Origin: an uncultured Alphaproteobacteria bacterium
GTDB lineage: Bacteria; Pseudomonadota; Alphaproteobacteria; RF32; CAG-239
Assembly: GCA_910585375.1 (NCBI GenBank)
Contig: CAJUCZ010000004.1
Location: 10,636 to 74,635, forward strand
Direction of reading: 5' to 3'
Length of the DNA: 64,000 bases
A program made the position numbers and the translations under genes. Of this stretch, positions 11,054 through 43,617 are shown in pieces. Within the stretch, counting starts at the first letter, position 1; every line of letters begins with the position of its first letter. The notes beneath the pieces were generated by a model. That model did not search any database. It was not told the DNA's origin and saw nothing but the letters and a program-made list of their open reading frames with translations.

Positions 11054-11455
11054 TTATTTTTGTTGTTGTTCCTGCATCATCTTCAAAAATTTGCCCATTT
11101 GTCCGGTTGCTTTGTTGACAAACTCGTTATATTCTTCCTTCGAGATTTTTCCGTCTTTGTTGGTGTCAAGCTGAGAAAAAGATTCGGCAGACTTCTTGCG
11201 GGTTTCTTCAATCATGTAATCAATGTATTCTTCTTGCGAGATATTGCCGTCTTTATCCTTGTCCAGCTTGTTGAACTCTTCGTCGCTGATTTCCTGAAGC
11301 TTAGCCTGCAACTGTGCAAAGTCAAGCTGCTGCGACATAACTTTGGTTGAAACGTCGGCATGAGCCAGAGCCGGAACCATTGCCAAACCGCAGAGCAGGA
11401 CATATTTAATTTTGTTCATATTCTTCTTCTCCCCAAAAAACATTACATTCTTCAC
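11054..11455 (-). CDS. secreted EF-hand calcium-binding protein
   Basis: signal peptide; two canonical EF-hand loops DKDKDGNISQEE and DTNKDGKISKEE. Confidence 0.7.
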   Translation of the reverse strand: MKNVMFFGEKKNMNKIKYVLLCGLAMVPALAHADVSTKVMSQQLDFAQLQAKLQEISDEEFNKLDKDKDGNISQEEYIDYMIEETRKKSAESFSQLDTNKDGKISKEEYNEFVNKATGQMGKFLKMMQEQQQK

Positions 11456-11521
11456 AAAAATAAATCCAAAAGATTAATATTTGCTTACTCTTATATTGTG
11501 CGGGAAGAATAGAAATTCAAC

Positions 11522-11552
11522 TTGCAAAAAAGAAAGATTCGTTTAATATAAT
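11522..11552 (+). promoter_or_regulatory. sigma70-like promoter of HTH cassette copy 1 (-35 TTGCAA, -10 TATAAT region)
   Basis: TTGCAA at 11522-11527 and AATATAAT at 11545-11552; same arrangement conserved upstream of copies 2 and 3. Confidence 0.55.
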
Positions 11553-11557
11553 AGCCG

Positions 11558-11741
11558 CAGTTCGGAGACGGGCTGTGGTGTCTAACAAACATCTCAAGTT
11601 TAGTTCCTCAATGTGGGGAGTGCCGGAAATAAGTGCGCATGCGCAACGAATAACGGCGACTGTAACTTGACAGTTTGTTAGCTCCCCGCCTTTAATTTTA
11701 AAGGCGGTTTTGTTTTAACAAAATCAAGGAGCTAAAATAAA
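11558..11741 (+). ncRNA. conserved structured 5' leader (attenuator-like) of HTH cassette copy 1
   Basis: 5' hairpin CAGTTCG-GAGA-CGGGCTG (GNRA loop); anti-SD AGCTCC at 11680-11685; intrinsic terminator CCGCCTTTA-attt-TAAAGGCGG+T-run at 11686-11716; SD AGGAGCT at 11727-11733; three homologous copies with compensatory substitutions. Confidence 0.6.
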
Positions 11742-12002
11742 ATGTTATCAAGAAAATATAGAAAAGAGTGGTATAAGACCTTCCGGAGTTATTGTAATAA
11801 AGAATTAAACCGGATGATGACGGAACAGGGCTTAACAAGTACGGAACTGGCGGATCATATAGATTTTTTTGAAGGTCGGATAGAAAAATTAAAAAGAAAT
11901 ACCAGCCATGTGAGAATGGAAGAATATGTGTATTTGTTTTCCTTTCTGGATAAGGTGTTTGAAATAAAACTTGTCGATGCCAAAGATTATCCTTGGCAGT
12001 AA
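11742..12002 (+). CDS. small helix-turn-helix (XRE-like) protein, cassette copy 1
   Basis: HTH-like segment QGLTSTELADHIDFFEGRIEKLKRN; 97% nt identity to 26782-27042 with 6 synonymous and 1 non-synonymous change (purifying selection). Confidence 0.65.
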   Translation: MLSRKYRKEWYKTFRSYCNKELNRMMTEQGLTSTELADHIDFFEGRIEKLKRNTSHVRMEEYVYLFSFLDKVFEIKLVDAKDYPWQ

Positions 12003-12003
12003 T

Positions 12004-12036
12004 AAAAAAGCGGGAGTTTTCTCCCGCTTTTTTCAT
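12004..12036 (+). terminator. intrinsic terminator after HTH gene copy 1 (GCGGGAG-ttttc-TCCCGC + T6)
   Basis: stem-loop plus T-run directly after stop codon. Confidence 0.65.
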
Positions 12037-12433
12037 TTTCTCTGTTCAGAGTACATGCTTTCTCACAAACTTTGCCATAGCACCGCGGTCTCTGAAGCAC
12101 CGTACAAACTGACGCCTCACCCGCTGGGTGCGGCCTCCCGACCGCGGTCTCATGGAACCGTATAAAACGTGCGCCACCCGCCGTGCGGGTCATCCTGAGC
12201 GAAGCGAAGGATCCAATCAAATCATATGGCTTTATTAATCAACTGGATTCTTCACTCCGTTCAGAATGACAGTACGTCTTCTTCAAAGCACTTTCTCAAT
12301 CACATCCCCGCCGGAGCATCGCGGTCCTCTGGGCACGGCGTCGGCAGCTGATCGCTCAGGCCGTCGCCTGTGGCACGGTATTTGCATTAGAGAAAGCAAA
12401 GTAAAAAAATTATCCGCGATTGGGGAGAATAAC

Positions 12434-13177
12434 ATGGATAATACAAAATATATTGCGTTGTCGCGCCAAATGGGGTTGTGGAAACAAATGGACATTGTTT
12501 CCAATAACATGGCAAACATGAACACCGCCGGTTATAAACAAGACGACGCCGTATTCAGCTCATATATCGTAAAAACCGAGGGAGCCAAGGGCTTTGGACA
12601 GGTTCCTTTGTACTTTACGCAGGACTTCGGAACATTTAAAGACTTTCAGGAAGGCGCTTTTCAGGAAACCGGCAATGCTCTGGACGTGGCGTTGCAGGGT
12701 AATGCTTTTTTTGCCATAGAAACGCCGAATGGTGAAATGTATACCAAAAAAGGCCAGTTTGCGCTTGATGCCAACGGCATGATTGTCACCAAAGACGGCG
12801 ATGCCCTGTTATCAGAAAATAACGAACCGTTTTTTATCGCGCCGGGAGAAAAAGAAATCGTCATCAGCGAAAACGGCGAAGTTTCAACCGAAACCGGCGT
12901 TATCGGCCGCTTAAAACTGGTAACTTTCGGCAATGAGCAGAAGCTTTTGAAAATGGGCGGCACAAAATTTGCAAATACCGAAGGCAACATGATGACAATC
13001 GGCGGCGGCAATACGCGGGTCATGCAGGGGAAAATCGAGCAGTCCAACGTTCAGCCGATTGTTGAAATGAGCAAAATGATAAAACTGCAGCGTTCTTACG
13101 AATATGTCCAGCAGATGATTGATGAAGAGCACGAGCGCCTTTCCAATACCATCAGCACCTATTCGCAGCTTGCATAA
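12434..13177 (+). CDS. flgF: flagellar basal-body rod protein FlgF
   Basis: N-terminal rod-protein signature DIVSNNMANMNTAGYK; start moved to ATG 12434 (RBS GGGGAG) rather than ORF-track 12266. Confidence 0.85.
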   Translation: MDNTKYIALSRQMGLWKQMDIVSNNMANMNTAGYKQDDAVFSSYIVKTEGAKGFGQVPLYFTQDFGTFKDFQEGAFQETGNALDVALQGNAFFAIETPNGEMYTKKGQFALDANGMIVTKDGDALLSENNEPFFIAPGEKEIVISENGEVSTETGVIGRLKLVTFGNEQKLLKMGGTKFANTEGNMMTIGGGNTRVMQGKIEQSNVQPIVEMSKMIKLQRSYEYVQQMIDEEHERLSNTISTYSQLA

Positions 13178-15747: not shown

Positions 15748-16413
15748 ATGAGAAAAAATATAAATGAAGTGAAACATGCGGAAAATGAAGCCGAGATTTT
15801 TTTGAGACACGCTCTGGCGATTTCAAATGCTTTTGGCAGCAACGATGAAATTGCAATCCTGACCGCATTGGATAATAACTTAAAATTGTGGGTAGAGATA
15901 GAAACTTCTCTCAAAGACGTAAAGAATTTGCTTCCTGAAGATATCAAAGAAAACTTGCTCAAGTTGTCAAAATTCATTGAGCGCCTTACCTTATCAAAAG
16001 GTCTTCATATGACTGCGCCGGATTATAACTGCCTTATTAACATCAATATGCAGATTTCCGAGGGCTTGCTGGAAGCCGTCAGAAACCATCTGGCCAAGGA
16101 AGAGGCTTTCTCTTTGTTAAAATGCGCGCTGGACATTTCTACAGCCCGCGATAATGAAGACAAAAACGGTCTGGTGGCAGCGCTTGACAATAATATGAAA
16201 CTTTGGGTTTATATTAAAACGCTGGCCAATTCCGAAGAAAATAATATGCCGAAAGAAACCAAGAACAATCTGATAAAACTGGCAGATTACGTTTCGGCCA
16301 AAACTTTGGAAGTCGGACAGGATATTGATAACCTGAACCAAAAGGCCATCGACAGCATGATTATGACCAATCTGCAAATTTCCGAAGGTCTGATGAACAA
16401 AAAAAGCGCTTAA
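15748..16413 (+). CDS. FlaF-like flagellar regulator, tandemly duplicated (two FlaF domains)
   Basis: two ~100-aa repeats each with LDNNxKLWV…INMQISEGL, matching FlaF motif (…N+xLW…IDIN+…EGL) also seen in 26044-26412. Confidence 0.55.
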   Translation: MRKNINEVKHAENEAEIFLRHALAISNAFGSNDEIAILTALDNNLKLWVEIETSLKDVKNLLPEDIKENLLKLSKFIERLTLSKGLHMTAPDYNCLININMQISEGLLEAVRNHLAKEEAFSLLKCALDISTARDNEDKNGLVAALDNNMKLWVYIKTLANSEENNMPKETKNNLIKLADYVSAKTLEVGQDIDNLNQKAIDSMIMTNLQISEGLMNKKSA

Positions 16414-16429
16414 TTAATAAAGTACATTA

Positions 16430-16461
16430 AAAAAGCGGAGGAAATCCTCCGCTTTTGTTTT
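16430..16461. terminator. bidirectional terminator between FlaF-like gene and Cys-rich gene (GCGGAGGA-aat-CCTCCGC + T-run)
   Basis: 8-bp stem, A-run/T-run flanks. Confidence 0.6.
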
Positions 16462-16478: not shown

Positions 16479-17678
16479 TTAGTTGCAGGTTCCTTCATAT
16501 GATGACGTTTTACCGTCACAGGTTGTATTTTTATCACTGCAAGAGCCACAGTTTTCTGAAGTATACCCATACTTACCGGTTCCATTTTTCTCACAATCTT
16601 CTTTGGTAAGATAGATTGTTCCGTTAGAATAGCAGGCTGAGGTTGTGAATACATCATTTTCTTCTCCTGTAGAGGTGTTTCTGCAGCCTTTAGTTACCTT
16701 ATGGACCCAATGGTAACCGGAACCGCTTGGGGAACAAGAGCCGCCACCGGCTGCGCGGACATACCCGACCCACTTGTTGCCGGAACTCCCGCTCCCTGAA
16801 CTTCCGCTGCCACCAGATCCTGAACCTCCGCCTGAACCGCCGGAATTACCGGAAGACGGGGGCGGGGTATAACAAGACCCACAGCATTTTCTGGTACCGC
16901 CGCACCCGTCGGAACAAGAATAGCAGTTGCATCCGCTTTCATCACCATAAGGCGTACAGCATGATTGATAAGGATAATAGCATGTTTTCGTGCGGCATCC
17001 GTTCTTGGTCGACCCGCCGCAACCTCCGGGGTTAGAGGTTGAAGTTCCGGACGGGCAGTTAGGATTGCAGGTGTAATAGCAGGTATAACCGCAGCCGTCA
17101 GAGCCGTTTGCTCCGTAAGAAGAATAACTTAAAGACGTATTCGCCGGACAGCCGGAAGGCCTGCAGCAGGTACCGAAATTGTTATCATAAGAACAGCGGC
17201 CGGAGGCATGAAGTTTCTGACCGGACGGGCATGAGTTTGTATATCCGGTATCGCGACAAGCCCGTTGATTGTCTCTTTTACAACCTTTGTATAAAGTTGC
17301 GAAACTTGGGCAAGGCTGGTCAACATAGTTCGGGATAGAACATGAGGTCGTGTTATAACCGTTATCGGTACACCATTTAACCGGATCACATTTAAGGTAA
17401 TAATCGTCTTTCTTACACTTACCGACCTGTGCCTGATACTGCGGACATTTACCGGAAGCATAATAGGTGTAACCTTTCTTCTCACACCATTCAGTGTCAT
17501 TGTTGACATTCATGTTTACATCGCCGTGCAAGGTATCGGAATCCTGACAGTCAGGCAGGAAACAGACGCCACAATAAGCATTGGAAGGCGGGAGGAAGAC
17601 CGAGAAAGCAGCGGCCACAGCCAGGGCTGATACCGCAGAGTTTAGTTTCAGGTGTAGCATAGTGTTAATGTTTTTCAT
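16479..17678 (-). CDS. secreted cysteine/glycine/serine-rich protein (399 aa), paralog of 42285-43415
   Basis: signal peptide MKNINTMLHLKLNSAVSALAVAAAFS; ~14% Cys; GS-rich linker PPPSSGNSGGSGGGSGSGGSGSSGSGSSG; RBS GGGAGGAAGCCG-ATG; N-terminal 230 aa ~80% identical to paralog. Confidence 0.7.
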   Translation of the reverse strand: MKNINTMLHLKLNSAVSALAVAAAFSVFLPPSNAYCGVCFLPDCQDSDTLHGDVNMNVNNDTEWCEKKGYTYYASGKCPQYQAQVGKCKKDDYYLKCDPVKWCTDNGYNTTSCSIPNYVDQPCPSFATLYKGCKRDNQRACRDTGYTNSCPSGQKLHASGRCSYDNNFGTCCRPSGCPANTSLSYSSYGANGSDGCGYTCYYTCNPNCPSGTSTSNPGGCGGSTKNGCRTKTCYYPYQSCCTPYGDESGCNCYSCSDGCGGTRKCCGSCYTPPPSSGNSGGSGGGSGSGGSGSSGSGSSGNKWVGYVRAAGGGSCSPSGSGYHWVHKVTKGCRNTSTGEENDVFTTSACYSNGTIYLTKEDCEKNGTGKYGYTSENCGSCSDKNTTCDGKTSSYEGTCN

Positions 17679-17818
17679 CGGCTTCCTCCCAAAGCAAACG
17701 CACCCAGCGGGTGAGGCAACAAAAGCCCCGATCGTCTGTCAACAATGTGCCAAAGCTTTCGCGTTGCTTTTTTCTTTATCTGGGCAACCCAGTGCCCGGA
17801 ATGGTTAATACTAATGTC

Positions 17819-17847
17819 ACTATAGCACACGAAAGCGCAAGAGTCAA
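17819..17847 (-). promoter_or_regulatory. sigma70 promoter of Cys-rich gene 1 (TTGACT-17-TATAGT on minus strand)
   Basis: -10 at 17819-17824, -35 at 17842-17847, 17-nt spacer; identical architecture upstream of paralog; conserved upstream box 17852-17879. Confidence 0.6.
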
Positions 17848-17855
17848 CACATAAT

Positions 17856-18000
17856 GAAAAGTCGGGTGGAGATTTTGGGCAGCAGGATGGGAAAAGCAGA
17901 GGGGATTTTGGCTAATCAGGGAGGAGAAAGTGGAGGGAATGGAGAAAGAATGGAAAGGCGGAAATGGGAAAATAAAAAATGAATTTAAAGATAAGGAAAT
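17856..18000 (+). repeat. polypurine (GA-rich) strand-asymmetric tract
   Basis: ~145 bp almost exclusively G/A on plus strand (GGAGGAGAAAGTGGAGGGAATGGAGAAAGAATGGAAAGG…). Confidence 0.7.
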
Positions 18001-26043: not shown

Positions 26044-26412
26044 ATGAATGAATCCGATCAATATTCCAACAATGAAATGCAGTCATTGTCACAGTCGGAG
26101 TTAGAAAGCAGAGCCCTCATTAATACGGCGTCCAAACTGAATTATATCAGAGAACATTGGGAAGAGGGAAAAGCCGGGTTGGATGAAGCTCTGGATAAAA
26201 ACCGCAAATTATGGGCGATTATTGCTTCAGCCATGCAGGAGGCAGATTGTCCGCAGCCGGCTGACGTCCGCCAGAATATTTTGAATCTGTCTGTCTTTAT
26301 ATTTAAGCGTACAATTGATATTTTGACAGACCCCAAACCGGAAAGCCTGCGCGTGCTGATTGATATTAATATGAATCTGGCAAAAGGCCTGAACCATAAA
26401 GGCATTGATTAA
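26044..26412 (+). CDS. flaF: flagellar biosynthesis regulator FlaF
   Basis: LDKNRKLWAIIASAM…LIDINMNLAKGL matches Caulobacter FlaF pattern (HKNRQLW…IDINRAIMEGL). Confidence 0.6.
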   Translation: MNESDQYSNNEMQSLSQSELESRALINTASKLNYIREHWEEGKAGLDEALDKNRKLWAIIASAMQEADCPQPADVRQNILNLSVFIFKRTIDILTDPKPESLRVLIDINMNLAKGLNHKGID

Positions 26413-26566
26413 TCGGTGATTAAGTAAAAAAGTTTTACCAGCCCCGACTTACTTGGGGCTTTTATTTTTCCTGCCTCACTGCCTTCAGCTGTATTCCGGA
26501 TGCCAAGCCAATTCCTATGTCTCCACCACCCGCTTTTTCCCGTCAGTCTCCCCCAAAAAAATCCGC

Positions 26567-26597
26567 TTGCAAAAGTCATAGATTTGTTTATGATAAT
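26567..26597 (+). promoter_or_regulatory. sigma70-like promoter of HTH cassette copy 2 (TTGCAA … TATGATAAT)
   Basis: AAAAAAATCCGCTTGCAAAA block shared verbatim with copy 3. Confidence 0.55.
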
Positions 26598-26602
26598 ACC
26601 CG

Positions 26603-26781
26603 CAGTCCGGAGGCGGACTGTGGTGTCGAAAACATCTTACGAGTTAATCCGCTTTGGCGGAGTTTGGGAAATAAGCCGCTTTGCGGGCGAATAACCATAG
26701 CTGTCTCGTACAGTTTTTCGGCTCCGCCACCCTTGTTTTAGGGTGGTTTTGTTTTAATCAAAACTAGGAGCTAAAAATAAA
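26603..26781 (+). ncRNA. structured 5' leader of HTH cassette copy 2
   Basis: hairpin CAGTCCG-GAGG-CGGACTG at 26603-26620; anti-SD GGCTCC; terminator CCACCC-ttgtttta-GGGTGG + TTTTGTTTT; SD AGGAGCT; homologous to 11558-11741 and 31504-31684. Confidence 0.6.
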
Positions 26782-27042
26782 ATGTTATCAAGAAAATATA
26801 GAAAAGAGTGGTATAAAACCTTCCGGAGTTATTGCAATAAAGAATTAAACCGGATAATGACGGAACAGGGCTTAACAAGTACGGAACTGGCGGATCATAT
26901 AGATTTTTTTGAAGGTCGGATAGAAAAATTAAAAAGAAATACCAGCCATGTGAGAATGGAAGAATATGTGTATCTGTTTTCATTTCTGGATAAAGTGTTT
27001 GAAATAAAACTTGTCGACGCCAAAGATTATCCTTGGCAGTAA
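26782..27042 (+). CDS. small HTH (XRE-like) protein, cassette copy 2
   Basis: 85/86 aa identical to 11742-12002. Confidence 0.65.
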   Translation: MLSRKYRKEWYKTFRSYCNKELNRIMTEQGLTSTELADHIDFFEGRIEKLKRNTSHVRMEEYVYLFSFLDKVFEIKLVDAKDYPWQ

Positions 27043-27950
27043 TAAAAAAGCGGGAGAGAATCCCGCTTTTTTTCTTCCCTCTTCAAAACAGAAACCCTAT
27101 CACATTTCCCATTGGAGTACCGCAATCCTCAGGGCACCGTACAAACTGACGCCTCACCCGCCGGGTGTGACCGCGGGTCTCATGGCACACGTTTTGTACG
27201 GTGCCACCGGTTGTACCGGTCACCCTCTGTCTTTTTTTTATTGTCACCCTCGGGCTTCAACCCGAGGGACCATCTCACAATCGGCACAGTGCTTGTTTCC
27301 TTATGGATTCTCGGGTCGCAGCCCGAGAATGACAGTAGAAGAAAGCCGCAGAATGACAAATGCTTCAAAGCACCATTCCCCCGTCCGGCACGGTTTGTGT
27401 GCCCTTTGCGAATGGCTTAGGTTTTGGAGCAAAAACCGAAAGTGAAACACCACTCCCCTCAAGCCTGAGGGGTGGGGGAGCGCTAAGTAAAAACAACCGC
27501 AGCTCCGGTTGTTTTTGTCTGCAAGCTCTTTGGAACATCTTGGCAAGCGAGGAAAGCGTTAGCAACCGCAGCGAGCCTAGATGCCTAAGTTGCCCCGCCC
27601 GATTACCGAATGATTTCTTAGCTTTTGGCCCAAAGAGGCGAATATTAAGTACTGAGCCTTGGAACGTAGTGATGTTTGTGGCTGCCGGCCTCCCGGCCTT
27701 TGGGTTGAAAGCTTAGAAAATGAGGTTGGGCTTGACTTTTGCCATTTATTCCTCCCCTGAAGCACATCCTCACATCCGGCATGGTTTGGGTGCCCTTTGC
27801 GAATGGCTTAGGTTTTGGAGCAAAAACCGAAAGTGAAGCACAATGGTAGAGAGCGTAGCGAGATTAATTTTGCTCTGAAACCTTAGCAAATGAGCGTAGG
27901 GCTGCCTTTTTGGTTACTTTTTGGCAGTCAAAAAGTAACAATAAAAAATA
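27043..27950 (+). repeat. non-coding repeat/palindrome-rich region (cassette 3' tail plus ~85-bp direct repeats 27366-27450 and 27757-27842; palindromes at 27133-27205, 27247-27268, 27308-27329, 27490-27520, 27912-27938)
   Basis: no credible ORF; multiple perfect inverted repeats (CCCTCGGG…CCCGAGGG; TTCTCGGG…CCCGAGAA; GTTACTTTTTG-gcagt-CAAAAAGTAAC) and an 85-bp direct repeat 390 bp apart. Confidence 0.6.
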
Positions 27951-31467: not shown

Positions 31468-31684
31468 TTGCAAAATCTTTGTAATACATTATGATAACTC
31501 TCGCAGTCCGGAGACGGACTGTGGTGTCTCAAAACATCTTACAGATTTTCCACCATGAGGTGGAGTGCCTAAAATAAGCCGCTTTGCGGACGAATCATGG
31601 CGACTGTGTCTGTACAGTTTTGAGCTCCACCACCTTAGTTTCTAAGGTGGTTTTGTTTTAACAAAATTATGGAGCTAAAAAATA
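31468..31684 (+). ncRNA. promoter (TTGCAA-16-TATGAT) plus structured 5' leader of HTH cassette copy 3
   Basis: hairpin CAGTCCG-GAGA-CGGACTG at 31504-31521; anti-SD AGCTCC; terminator CACCACCTTAG-tttc-TAAGGTGG + TTTTGTTTT; SD GGAGCT; ATG 31685. Confidence 0.6.
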
Positions 31685-31957
31685 ATGAAGAATATAAAAT
31701 ATCAATCCAGAGCGACAAATCCGCTGAAAGCGATTCACCGGACGCTGGGTTTCGCCTTTTACTGCGAAAGGCGAAAAGACGAGATTCCGTTAAAAAAAGT
31801 CAGCAAGAAACTAAAAGTCCCAACCGAATATATAGAAGATTTGGAATTAGGACGCGGCAAAATCAGACCGTGGCTGATAAAAGAACTTCTGGAATATTAT
31901 AATAGAAAAATATCAGTCTACCTTGACATACCGGAAGATAAGATGAAAAAGAACTAA
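31685..31957 (+). CDS. small HTH (XRE-like) protein, cassette copy 3 (divergent paralog)
   Basis: HTH segment KKVSKKLKVPTEYIEDLELGRGKIRPWLIKEL; same leader/terminator/tail context as copies 1-2. Confidence 0.55.
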   Translation: MKNIKYQSRATNPLKAIHRTLGFAFYCERRKDEIPLKKVSKKLKVPTEYIEDLELGRGKIRPWLIKELLEYYNRKISVYLDIPEDKMKKN

Positions 31958-32113
31958 AACAAAAGCGGGCTTAACCTCCCGCTTTTTTCATTTCAAAGCA
32001 CCATCTCCCCCACAAACCCCGCCATAGCATCGCGGTCCTCAGAGCAGGGTGTTAACAACCGAAGCCTCACCCGCCGGGTGCGGCCTCCCGACAGCAGCCG
32101 ATGTTCGGCAAAT

Positions 32114-42284: not shown

Positions 42285-43415
42285 CTAATAACATGTAAAC
42301 TCAGCACTTATACCGCCCCAAGAGCAACCAATAAATTCTGCGTTGTTGCAGCTTGATAATGCGCTGCTGCAATTGCTAAAGCCGATACCTGAAAATTTAA
42401 AAGCACAGTCATTATAGCGGCCACAGTAGGAACCAATATCATCACAACAACTCATATGGTAGCCTGGATTACTGGGAGAGCAGCCGTAACCGCCGCATTG
42501 CGGATCACAAGAATCAATAGAGCCGTCTTTGCAGCAGTCGCCATGACATGTAGAATGGACGGAGCACCAGTTGGAAGAGGACGAGTTGCAGCAAGAAGAA
42601 CACCTTTTGCAAGTCCCCCCGCAACCATCGGAAATCGTGTAAGAGCCGCAGGAACAAGAGCTTGTGGTATCGGAACAGCTTGGCGTACAACAAGCTTGAT
42701 AAGGATAATAACAAGTTTTATCCCCGCATCCATTTTTGGTCGAACCGCCACAACCTCCGGGGTTGGAAGTTGAAGTACCTGACGGGCAGTTAGGGTTGCA
42801 GGTGTAATAACAGGTATACTCGCAGCCATCGGTACCGTTCATGCCGTAGGATGAAGAAGTTAAAGACGTATAAGCCGGACAATCAGACGGCGTACAGCAG
42901 GTGCCGTAGGATGAATCGTAAGTACAACGACCGGAGTTCTTTTTAAGCTTCTGACCTGACGGACAGGTTTTGGTATATTTGAGTTCCTTACAAGCCCGTT
43001 GATTGTCTCTTTTACAACCTTTGTATAAAGTTGCGAAACTTGGGCAAGGCTGGTCAACATAGTTCGGGATAGAACAAGTTGTCGTGTTATAACCGTTTTG
43101 CTGACACCAGGTCTTTGCGTCACATTTGAGGTAATAGTCGTCAAAAGGGCATGTATCCGTCACAGCCTGGTACTGCGGACATTTACCGGAAGCGTAATAG
43201 GTAAAGCCTTCTTTTTCACATTTATCGGTATCAATGTTGGGATTAGGGTTAGGCCCCGGAAAAACGCCGTCTTCATCGCCGCAGTCCGGCAGGAAGCAGA
43301 CGCCACAATAAGCATTGGAAGGTGGGAGGAAGACCGAGAAAGCAGCGGCCACAGCCAAGACTGATACCGCAGAGTTTAGTTTCATGTGTAGCATATTTCT
43401 GTTAATGTTTTTCAT
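42285..43415 (-). CDS. secreted cysteine/glycine/serine-rich protein (376 aa), paralog of 16479-17678
   Basis: start set to ATG 43415 with RBS GGGAGGAAGCCG (not upstream ATG 43454); signal peptide; conserved N-terminal 230 aa, divergent C-terminal region. Confidence 0.7.
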   Translation of the reverse strand: MKNINRNMLHMKLNSAVSVLAVAAAFSVFLPPSNAYCGVCFLPDCGDEDGVFPGPNPNPNIDTDKCEKEGFTYYASGKCPQYQAVTDTCPFDDYYLKCDAKTWCQQNGYNTTTCSIPNYVDQPCPSFATLYKGCKRDNQRACKELKYTKTCPSGQKLKKNSGRCTYDSSYGTCCTPSDCPAYTSLTSSSYGMNGTDGCEYTCYYTCNPNCPSGTSTSNPGGCGGSTKNGCGDKTCYYPYQACCTPSCSDTTSSCSCGSYTISDGCGGTCKRCSSCCNSSSSNWCSVHSTCHGDCCKDGSIDSCDPQCGGYGCSPSNPGYHMSCCDDIGSYCGRYNDCAFKFSGIGFSNCSSALSSCNNAEFIGCSWGGISAEFTCY

Positions 43416-43557
43416 CGGCTTCCTCCCATAATAAAAATTCTTTTCAAAGCACATACTTTGTCATAATTAACTGCTGAAGCAACGCAGGTTCTAAGACACT
43501 GTATAAACCGATCGCTGCCGACGTTCGGCCACCTGTCGTGCAGGTGACAATGAAGAT

Positions 43558-43617
43558 ACTATAGCACAATAAAATACCTGTGTCAATATGCAATGAAAAG
43601 TCGAGTAGAGATTTTGG
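43558..43617 (-). promoter_or_regulatory. sigma70 promoter of Cys-rich gene 2 (TTGACA-17-TATAGT) with conserved upstream box
   Basis: -10 43558-43563, -35 43581-43586; box CCAAAATCTCTACTCGACTTTTCATT (minus strand) ~27/28 identical to gene-1 box. Confidence 0.6.

Follow-up and report, generated by a model that had tools for sequence, protein, structure and literature searches.

The window analysed here, a stretch of 64,000 nucleotides (64 kb), carries two genes, A and B, each predicted to encode an exported cysteine-rich protein. The pair was singled out in an earlier note, and both reading frames exist where that note placed them, with the correction that both are on the minus strand. Their parts, and the neighbouring elements, are as follows.

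16479..17678, minus strand: coding sequence of gene A, a predicted exported, cysteine-rich modular protein of 399 residues (open reading frame, homologues, syntenic orthologue in L001)
17574..17678, minus strand: Sec-type signal peptide of A, residues 1-35, predicted cleavage after SNA (A-x-A-like c-region)
17547..17564, minus strand: near-invariant CFLPDC motif of A, residues 39-44, just past the signal-peptide cleavage site (close members: 116 of 120; also 47 distant members)
16869..17504, minus strand: conserved base of A, residues 59-270 (AlphaFold2 pLDDT, invariant columns, repeat alignment)
16779..16868, minus strand: low-complexity Gly/Ser/Pro linker of A, residues 271-300 (pLDDT below 50)
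16482..16778, minus strand: C-terminal tip domain of A, residues 301-399, a rare type found only in A, P0001, P0002, P0004 and L001
17679..17818, minus strand: 5′ leader of A, 'Y' type
17819..17847, minus strand: promoter of A, TTGACT, 17 nt, TGcTATAGT (extended -10)
17853..17878, minus strand: family-specific upstream box of A, CCAAAATCTCCACCCGACTTTTCATT, at about -38 to -65
17890..17915, minus strand: second, degenerate half-copy of the box, TTAGCCAAAATCCCCTCTGCTTTTCC, directly upstream of it (read from sequence)
16431..16456, strand not assigned: hairpin flanked on either side by T-runs, in the interval that separates gene A from the convergent flaF
42285..43415, minus strand: coding sequence of gene B, a paralogue of 376 residues (open reading frame; identical protein P0038 in NCBI/ENA assemblies)
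42501..42629, minus strand: spacer module of B, residues 263-305, NSSSSNWCSVHSTCHGDCCKDG..C..CGG.GC, not present in A (more than 50 family members have it, at 63-93% identity)
42288..42500, minus strand: C-terminal tip of B, residues 306-376, a fast-diverging cysteine-framework type with remote relatives only
43416..43557, minus strand: 5′ leader of B, 'X' type
43558..43586, minus strand: promoter of B, TTGACA, 17 nt, TGcTATAGT (extended -10)
43592..43617, minus strand: upstream box of B, CCAAAATCTCTACTCGACTTTTCATT

The observation of two related cysteine-rich genes was confirmed with small corrections, and the interpretation first attached to it is partly supported. The cysteine content, given as about 14% for both, is 10.3% in A (41/399) and 13.0% in B (49/376). 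CC pairs are present (3 in A, 5 in B), but the reported CxxC clusters are sparse (4 in A, 3 in B), and of the two reported Gly/Ser-rich linkers only that of A is long. Both signal peptides were correctly recognised; each has a basic n-region and a 15-residue hydrophobic core (mean Kyte-Doolittle 2.3-2.5) followed by PPSNA, and neither protein contains a further hydrophobic segment. The first 230 residues are 77% identical, close to the 80% first given, and identity over approximately 270 residues is 74%. The C-termini are unrelated, as claimed: alignment of the two tails gives no significance, and they differ wholesale, not at scattered positions. The RBS context GGGAGGAAGCCGATG is identical in the two genes. 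The frame of B is open to 43454, but public gene calls start at the ATG at 43415, which bears the RBS common to both genes. A frameshift or annotation artefact can be dismissed, since a tblastn search of each protein against the window found no out-of-frame copy of the other's tail, and both tails recur intact in public assemblies, that of A as P0001 and that of B in P0038, which has the same start and the same neighbours. The hairpin at 16431..16456 is likely a terminator shared by gene A and flaF.

A and B are, judged by sequence, two members of a large multigene family restricted to uncultured gut Alphaproteobacteria. We found 232 homologues of A, all unannotated and all from gut alphaproteobacterial MAGs, and only 181 cluster representatives among 1.84 billion proteins. 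The MAGs came from a human-gut catalogue, from Hadza- and BRZ-labelled metagenomes and from water-deer rectum. A scan confirmed 126 family loci, of which 80, from six species-level gut alphaproteobacterial MAGs, were retained; one MAG alone holds at least 25 copies. The family genes are single, dispersed and monocistronic, and orthologues remain at syntenic chromosomal sites. No conserved partner gene was detected, no neighbour family being common to more than 4 of the 80 loci, and no copy or silent cassette besides A and B was found in the window.

The earlier reader had not recognised the family, and it matches nothing known end to end. Neither A nor B has a Pfam-A match at E<=1; NCBIfam gave one meaningless match (11.6 bits against a cut-off of 297), and PDB sequences, PDB folds and viral models gave no significant match. 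Among 122 members, only two have marginal domain matches. Literature searches found no description of this cysteine-rich family. An origin from mobile elements was considered and rejected on the lack of phage or plasmid relatives and of a viral fold match.

The order of parts is a Sec signal peptide, [A/G][I/V]CFLPDC, repeats, a beta-rich cysteine module, an optional cysteine-rich spacer, a Gly/Ser linker and a tip. The near-invariant [A/G][I/V]CFLPDC lies at the predicted mature N-terminus, always directly after the A-x-A site, distant members included. It falls in a low-confidence part of the AlphaFold2 model of A, and the region is probably flexible. The base of A consists of three helix-plus-hairpin cysteine repeats of about 38 residues (59-98, 99-136 and 137-175) and then the beta-rich cysteine module; block-mean pLDDT is 79-97 over residues 61-270. 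This segment of some 210 residues is a confidently predicted fold without known relative. The base alignment has 37 invariant columns, mostly cysteines, and the conserved cysteines number 25, an odd count. The tip of A was modelled with low confidence.

No lipobox ([LVI][ASTVI][GAS]C), beta-barrel, transmembrane anchor or known sorting signal was found in A or B. Visual comparison with the lipobox consensus showed V, I or T before the conserved cysteine and, ahead of that residue, an A-x-A site for signal peptidase I; no C-terminal beta-barrel translocator was matched in Pfam, the tails being cysteine-rich modules of 70-130 residues. The two proteins likewise contain no detectable ligand-binding domain. 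Their cysteines might instead bind metals, in periplasmic metal-binding or redox-buffering proteins, a reading which draws on the high cysteine content with some CxxC and CC pairs. We regard it as very unlikely: CxxC is rare, with 3-4 per protein, CxxCH is absent from both, and massive diversification of paralogues would not be expected for metal buffering. The spacing of the conserved cysteines, moreover, lies in beta-hairpins and helices that are predicted with confidence, as is typical of extracellular domains stabilised by disulfides.

The pattern of a conserved N-terminus and a variable C-terminus, first noticed in A and B, holds over approximately 230 homologues. The term hypervariable, earlier applied to the C-terminus, is misleading in that the tails are discrete modules. 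Single-linkage BLAST clustering, with the spacer included, divided 161 tails into about 33 clusters, and there are about 30 small cysteine-framework tip types (a few dozen), shared across species. The suggested comparison of orthologues gave different results for the two genes. The tip of A is 91-93% identical to that of its syntenic orthologue (dS 0.19, dN/dS 0.33), whereas the tip class of B does diverge fast; its cysteine framework is common only to the remote relatives P0031 and P0039 and the syntenic L030. This class has a conserved cysteine framework with hypervariable loops. The linker of A is 47% identical between orthologues (dN/dS 0.32) and contains a weak 12-nt tandem repeat at 16819-16842. 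The tip of A alone, searched against a large protein database, returned nothing, though identical tips occur there, so this blank carries no information.

Between the syntenic orthologues of A, the base (N-domain) has a dS of 1.16-1.6, as against 0.19 in the tip and 0.06-0.33 in the flanking genes. Recombination among paralogues therefore overwrites the base and not the tip; in A the N-domain and the leader are the overwritten parts, and the tip diverges like the flanking genes. Reassortment is visible in individual members: P0003 and P0005 have bases 95-100% identical to that of A with different tips, and P0004 has the tip of A on a different base. At saturation, codon identity between A and B would be expected to stand at 0.41; it reaches 1.00 for residues 113-140 and 0.87 in the signal peptide (counted at shared residues), the DNA of which is 93-97% identical, and is about 0.5 elsewhere. 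These sequence comparisons show that bases and tips are joined in new combinations and that promoter, signal peptide and base are kept alike by patchy gene conversion. In the window, neither tail has a second copy such as a DGR-type template would provide.

Conserved N-termini with swappable C-termini and recombination between them are also what secreted polymorphic toxins or bacteriocin-like effectors would display, with an N-terminal part for export and target entry and a toxic module as the tip; the small disulfide-rich tips, those of the B class in particular, resemble peptide toxins and defensins. The earlier note had compared the pattern to that of toxin-like proteins, whose main hallmarks are missing. 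None of the 122 members has a toxin domain, and a conserved downstream gene is absent in the 80 loci. In the window, the convergent housekeeping genes flaF (at A) and secA (at B) directly follow the two genes, and thus leave no room for an immunity gene. With orthologues fixed at syntenic chromosomal sites and no phage or plasmid relatives, we consider a toxin function unlikely.

The claim of near-consensus sigma70 promoters on both genes was borne out, and the sharing of promoter, box and RBS holds family-wide. The same promoter architecture, always with a 17-nt spacer and TGn, precedes 60 family genes. The box was described as 27 bp long and measures 26 nt; it is shared and lies upstream of the -35 as stated. 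Exactly two copies of it lie in the window, as against an expectation of 0 from shuffles even with 3 mismatches allowed; the family consensus of the box, TAGCCAAAATccccaccc.a.ttTTCA, is found upstream of 60 genes in 7 genomes. The tandem of box and half-copy seen at A recurs in L003, L017, L027, L028, L039, L049, L066, L078 and L080. The similar 5′ UTR of the two genes, put at about 135 nt, is real (140 nt from the -10 end to the ATG in A, 142 nt in B) but coincidental, this distance ranging from 22 to 681 nt across the family.

The leaders are themselves shown, at the sequence level, to be built from reusable modules. At least 24 family loci, from 5 species, have a Y-type leader (76-87% identical) abutting the ATG; the X-type has a full-length match in L014, and its last approximately 45 nt recur in many loci. 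A riboswitch or other known RNA in the leaders was rejected: Rfam found only two tRNAs at gathering score in the window and no known cis-regulatory RNA in the leaders, and the leaders fold no better than shuffles (z-scores of -0.3 and, for B, -1.1). RNAalifold yielded no robust structure for the Y-type leader, and a hand-derived structure was 84% paired with covariation not above controls.

The earlier suggestion of antigenic variation bears on these promoters. One or a few paralogues would be expressed at a time, evading host IgA or phages. In favour stand the size and dispersal of the family, the conservation of its promoter, RBS and signal peptide, the variable exposed parts, the mosaic gene conversion and the host-associated life of the bacterium; the general layout recalls the variable protein families of mycoplasma and Borrelia. 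Switching is nevertheless quite improbable, as every copy has its own complete strong promoter. An inverton or slipped-strand promoter found no support: the 17-nt spacer is invariant, only weak inverted repeats (10-15 nt, 80-90%) lie around the window promoters, and a search of the 9 loci without a forward promoter found none in reverse orientation. The family promoters contain no homopolymer tract, the window holds no promoterless silent cassettes, and the tip of A is stable between related species.

The distant members of the family speak for a binding function. These proteins, of 750-1843 residues, retain the signal peptide, CFLPDC and base and continue into Lcl_C (PF07603) domains, with one to three such domains in P0146, P0150, P0161, P0165 and P0244. 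In Legionella, the C-terminal domain of Lcl with PF07603 is the C-type-lectin-like, glycosaminoglycan-binding head of a stalked adhesin (PMC11162425). Because the distant members bear the counterpart of an adhesin head, we read the family as exported modular binding proteins of a new kind, with a shared base and interchangeable tips, forming a repertoire in gut bacteria; we give this reading a probability of about one half. The proteins would be exported, with disulfides in their folded form. The common base may hold or present the protein at the cell envelope, or may assemble it, perhaps by means of the CFLPDC peptide, and the tip would give the binding specificity. If so, each genome would encode a set of adhesin- or lectin-like proteins that bind ligands of host, dietary or microbial origin, and the shared box could let this set be co-regulated. 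An Lcl_C identity of one tip type of the close family was rejected, the profile-profile match being not significant (E = 0.024, probability 2%).

The strong, constitutive-looking promoters on all copies suit abundant structural proteins equally well. The family might then form a disulfide cross-linked, protease-resistant outer layer, functionally comparable to the cysteine-rich envelope proteins of chlamydiae or the cysteine-rich coats of protozoa. In its favour are the 10-13% cysteine, the odd count of conserved cysteines, which would allow bonds between molecules, the high expression suggested by near-consensus promoters and strong RBS, and the gut habitat. Such a coat leaves the dozens of unrelated tip types and the Lcl_C-bearing relatives unexplained, and the organism has normal peptidoglycan machinery (PBP1a, amidase, M23 peptidase); we find it improbable. 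A bolder reading, which we consider unlikely, is a dedicated surface-diversity system: dozens of disulfide-knotted proteins displayed via a new N-terminal sorting or attachment signal, A-x-A|[A/G][I/V]CFLPDC, switched on together by a box-binding regulator and continually re-assorted by recombination that moves cassettes of promoter, leader and base onto locus-fixed tips. It would have no described bacterial counterpart and, if true, would give bacteria an equivalent of the cysteine-rich coats found on gut protozoa.

These uncultured gut Alphaproteobacteria live in humans and animals, and their interaction with the host is almost unstudied. With at least 25 strongly promoted genes in one MAG, the family probably counts among the chief investments that these bacteria make outside the cell. 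The CFLPDC peptide is a candidate for a new N-terminal sorting or anchoring motif, and the box is a defined cis-element with which a candidate regulator may be sought. The family is also a natural example in which the "conserved" half of the genes is the recombining half. Should the tips be binding modules, they would amount to a collection of small binders, stabilised by disulfides and suited to conditions in the gut.

Several known systems resemble the family in part. Polymorphic toxin systems (CDI, Rhs) share the conserved N-terminal region, the variable C-terminal module and the diversification by recombination; the A/B proteins differ in being small and in having no immunity gene, recognisable toxin domain or adjacent dedicated secretion partner. 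The Vsp/Vlp proteins of Mycoplasma and Borrelia are paralogues with a highly conserved promoter, 5′ region and signal peptide, a varying mature part and recombining copies, in all of which the A/B family is alike. Vsp/Vlp proteins are lipoproteins with a lipobox and are switched by promoter tracts, inversions or an expression site, whereas in the A/B family a lipobox is lacking (V, I or T stands at position -1), the promoter spacer never varies and signs of inversion are absent.

In the VSPs of Giardia, the conserved part is a C-terminal membrane anchor, CXXC motifs are dense, and one protein is expressed at a time. These proteins are eukaryotic, whereas the A/B family is conserved N-terminally, anchorless and CxxC-sparse, with a strong promoter for each gene. 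The VSP-type traits are lacking in A and B (each has 3-4 CxxC and, beyond the signal peptide, no hydrophobic segment), and no sequence or fold relation was found. The likeness is to another dweller of the gut whose exported proteins form a large family with one conserved end, one variable part and a cysteine content of 10% or more (VSPs and high-cysteine proteins; 10.1101/2022.03.07.483299, PMC2188815).

The Hcp family of Helicobacter pylori (Sel1-like repeat paralogues; PMC3608669) is likewise a set of cysteine-rich paralogues, in a bacterium of the gastrointestinal tract. Neither A nor B matches any Pfam family; they are modelled as helix-plus-hairpin and beta-rich units and belong to a larger family. 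Hcp proteins, by contrast, are made of Sel1-like helical repeats. From Lcl, finally, A and B differ in having neither an Lcl_C domain nor collagen repeats, and in a cysteine-rich base where the Lcl C-terminal domain is without disulfides; Lcl is a single gene and the A/B family is expanded. With Lcl and its Lcl_C domain (DUF1566, PF07603) they share the plan of a Sec-exported protein in which a stalk or base carries a C-terminal binding head, a role that in A and B would fall to the tip.

Two paralogous genes for cysteine-rich proteins, A and B, are located in the window, and both reading frames proposed in the earlier note are real, with the minus strand as the coding strand:

16479-17678, minus strand, gene A (399 aa, 41 Cys, 10.3%)
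42285-43415, minus strand, gene B (376 aa, 49 Cys, 13.0%)

The cysteine content is high as proposed, at lower values than the suggested 14% or so. A and B were 77% identical in the first 230 residues (about 80% had been estimated), and BLASTP gave 74% identity across the N-terminal ~270 residues and no significant match beyond, in agreement with the description of the C-termini as unrelated. Frameshifting as the cause of the tail divergence was ruled out; no out-of-frame copy was found and both tails are intact in public assemblies. The anticipated signal peptide was evident at the start of both proteins (basic n-region, 15-residue hydrophobic core, PPSNA), with no hydrophobic segments following it in either.

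The surroundings are ordinary chromosome (44.3% G+C) with flagellar genes, an RND efflux operon, tRNA synthetases and the genes for SecA, RNase E, PBP1a and RF2. Gene A is flanked by flaF and the RND efflux operon and gene B by secA and an M48 peptidase gene, the downstream neighbour being convergent in both cases. Two FlaF-type flagellar regulator genes are present, 15748-16413 (+) and 26044-26412 (+), and the product of the one adjoining gene A (221 aa) consists of two FlaF units in tandem. At 11054-11455 (−) lies a gene for a small exported protein, 133 aa long, that has two EF-hand calcium-binding motifs.

A search with A returned 232 homologues, none of them named and all in uncultured Alphaproteobacteria, most of them matching A only over its N-terminal two thirds. 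When 1.84 billion cluster representatives were searched with a profile, only 181 matched. Scanning one genome per species confirmed 126 family loci, of which 80 were retained from six MAGs of human and animal guts (25, 16, 16, 12, 6 and 5 loci per MAG), many of them at contig ends. The earlier reader did not recognise the family, and indeed it had no match in Pfam, NCBIfam, PDB sequences, PDB folds or viral models; phage and plasmid collections held no relatives. A and B belong to an expanded, lineage-restricted family of Sec-exported, cysteine-rich modular proteins. A toxin role is possible; the absence of a partner gene at all 80 loci argues against toxin/immunity pairs as well as dedicated transport operons.

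The 37 invariant columns of the family alignment, mostly Cys, are confined to residues 65-228 of A, within the conserved base (residues 59-270). AlphaFold2 with the family alignment modelled residues 61-270 with block-mean pLDDT of 79-97, as three helix and beta-hairpin repeats of about 38 residues (59-98, 99-136 and 137-175) with four Cys each, followed by a beta-rich Cys module. Low-confidence parts of the model are the signal peptide, the start of the mature protein (~20 residues), the Gly/Ser linker and the tip of A. In 116 of 120 close members the peptide (A/G)(I/V)CFLPDC comes directly after the A-x-A cleavage site, and it recurs in 47 distant members with otherwise unrelated signal peptides. 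The near-invariance of this short stretch at the flexible start of the mature protein suggests that a partner recognises it. The stretch does not qualify as a lipobox.

After the base come an optional spacer (in B and more than 50 other members, not in A), the Gly/Ser linker and a tip of 60-130 residues. Single-linkage BLAST clustering with the shared spacer left in divided 161 tails into about 33 clusters, and the same tip types occur in different species. In distant members (750-1843 aa) the signal peptide, CFLPDC and the base are retained, and they are followed by Cys-rich repeats and by one to three Lcl_C domains (PF07603). In Legionella Lcl, the PF07603-containing C-terminal domain is a C-type-lectin-like head binding glycosaminoglycans (PMC11162425).

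The expression signals described earlier were largely borne out. A and B share the RBS context GGGAGGAAGCCGATG and have the promoters TTGACT and TTGACA, respectively, each followed by 17 nt and TATAGT, with TG preceding the −10. The distance from the −10 end to ATG is similar (140 nt in A, 142 nt in B). The conserved box upstream of the −35 exists, with a length of 26 rather than 27 nt; the only two copies in the window are those at A and B (0 expected by chance). In seven genomes, 60 family genes are preceded by the module TAGCCAAAATccccaccc.a.ttTTCA-N9-TTGAC-N17-TATAGT, always with the 17-nt spacer and TGn. The box was found upstream of family genes only and was missing from one distant Lcl_C-bearing relative. 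The main box of A is preceded, directly and in tandem, by a second, degenerate one (17890-17915); this duplication is not at gene B and recurs at about nine other family loci. Switching with mutually exclusive expression of the paralogues finds no support at the sequence level, as no inverted promoter or silent cassettes were found and the promoter spacer is invariant.

Family leaders are 22-681 nt long and assembled from reusable modules. The Y-type leader of gene A recurs beside the start codon at 24 or more loci of five species, and the X-type leader of gene B, whole or in part, at other loci. Neither leader matched Rfam or folded better than shuffles, and covariation gave no support for structure.

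In the BRZ_BN bin26 loci (L004-L072), the long leaders upstream of ~4001 are mosaics of short palindromic units (for example GTCATCCCCGGGC..GCCCGGGGATGAC and GGATTGCCGGATCAAGTCCGGCAATGAC). They also contain tandem units of ~28 nt that have mirror counterparts on the opposite side, and as many as four copies of the ~100-nt X module. Every tract of ≥97% identity between these paralogues lay within 300 nt upstream of the ATG and none in the coding sequence. Similar modules occupy three intergenic regions of the window away from family genes (12063-12373, 27132-27374 and 31990-32062), and the leader modules therefore look like REP/MITE-like dispersed repeats. A 13-nt hairpin, CACCCGC(T/C)GGGTG, occurs four times in the window (0.03 expected):

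12118-12130, hairpin copy
17701-17713, hairpin copy, in the A leader just before the RBS, then a T-rich run
27155-27167, hairpin copy
32068-32080, hairpin copy

A dispersed repeat of ~610 nt (84% identity) was found at 11521-12130 and 26566-27167, with a partial copy at 31502-31687 and 32011-32092. It contains an 86-aa ORF (11742-12002 and 26782-27042) whose product weakly matches the Cro/C1-type helix-turn-helix; another HTH ORF, related to it and 90 aa long, lies at 31685-31957, and the palindromic modules described above follow each of the three. The flagellar rod protein ORF (FlgE/F/G domains) at 12266-13177 (+), listed as 303 aa, probably starts later than 12266, since an X-type module in reverse orientation makes up the first ~110 nt and the Pfam domains begin at residue 62.

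The syntenic orthologue of A in MAG RGIG9125 (L001), beside flaF-flgH-flgA-flgG, allowed the gene parts to be compared separately.

Divergence between A and its orthologue L001
Flanking genes: dS 0.06-0.33, dN/dS 0-0.15
Tip of A: dS 0.19, dN/dS 0.33
Base of A: dS 1.16-1.6, dN/dS 0.07-0.11

These values, together with upstream regions that do not align between the orthologues, indicate that the base, seemingly conserved among paralogues, was replaced after the species diverged from each other and that the tip was inherited in place. Other combinations point in the same direction: the homologues P0003 and P0005 have different tips on bases 95-100% identical to that of A, and P0004 has the A tip joined to a different first repeat. 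So does codon identity between A and B, which at shared residues is complete for 113-140 (28/28), 87% in the signal peptide and ~50% elsewhere, with 41% expected at saturation. The modules recombine with one another, and the family reverses the usual expectation of which half of a gene recombines. The comparison of orthologues for C-terminal variability suggested in the earlier note shows little of it for the A tip and much more for the B tip: beside secA, the syntenic gene of a more distantly related MAG (L030) has kept the spacer and shares little of the tip beyond the Cys framework, and the tips of homologues P0031 and P0039 are comparably remote from that of B.

The proteins are likely to be disulfide-stabilised and extracellular or envelope-associated, with a common base that may present a variable tip and putative binding specificity that would reside in the tips. 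This reading is supported mainly by the arrangement of base, linker and tip and by the Lcl_C heads that distant relatives carry; a structural coat is also possible. Functionally, its parallels are with stalked adhesins, Lcl for example, and with the variable exported protein families known from mycoplasmas, Borrelia and Giardia. The family belongs to none of these; their defining features, when tested, were lacking in it. Multigene families of variable exported proteins are a kind already known, in which its fold, conserved N-terminal motif and cis-element are new.
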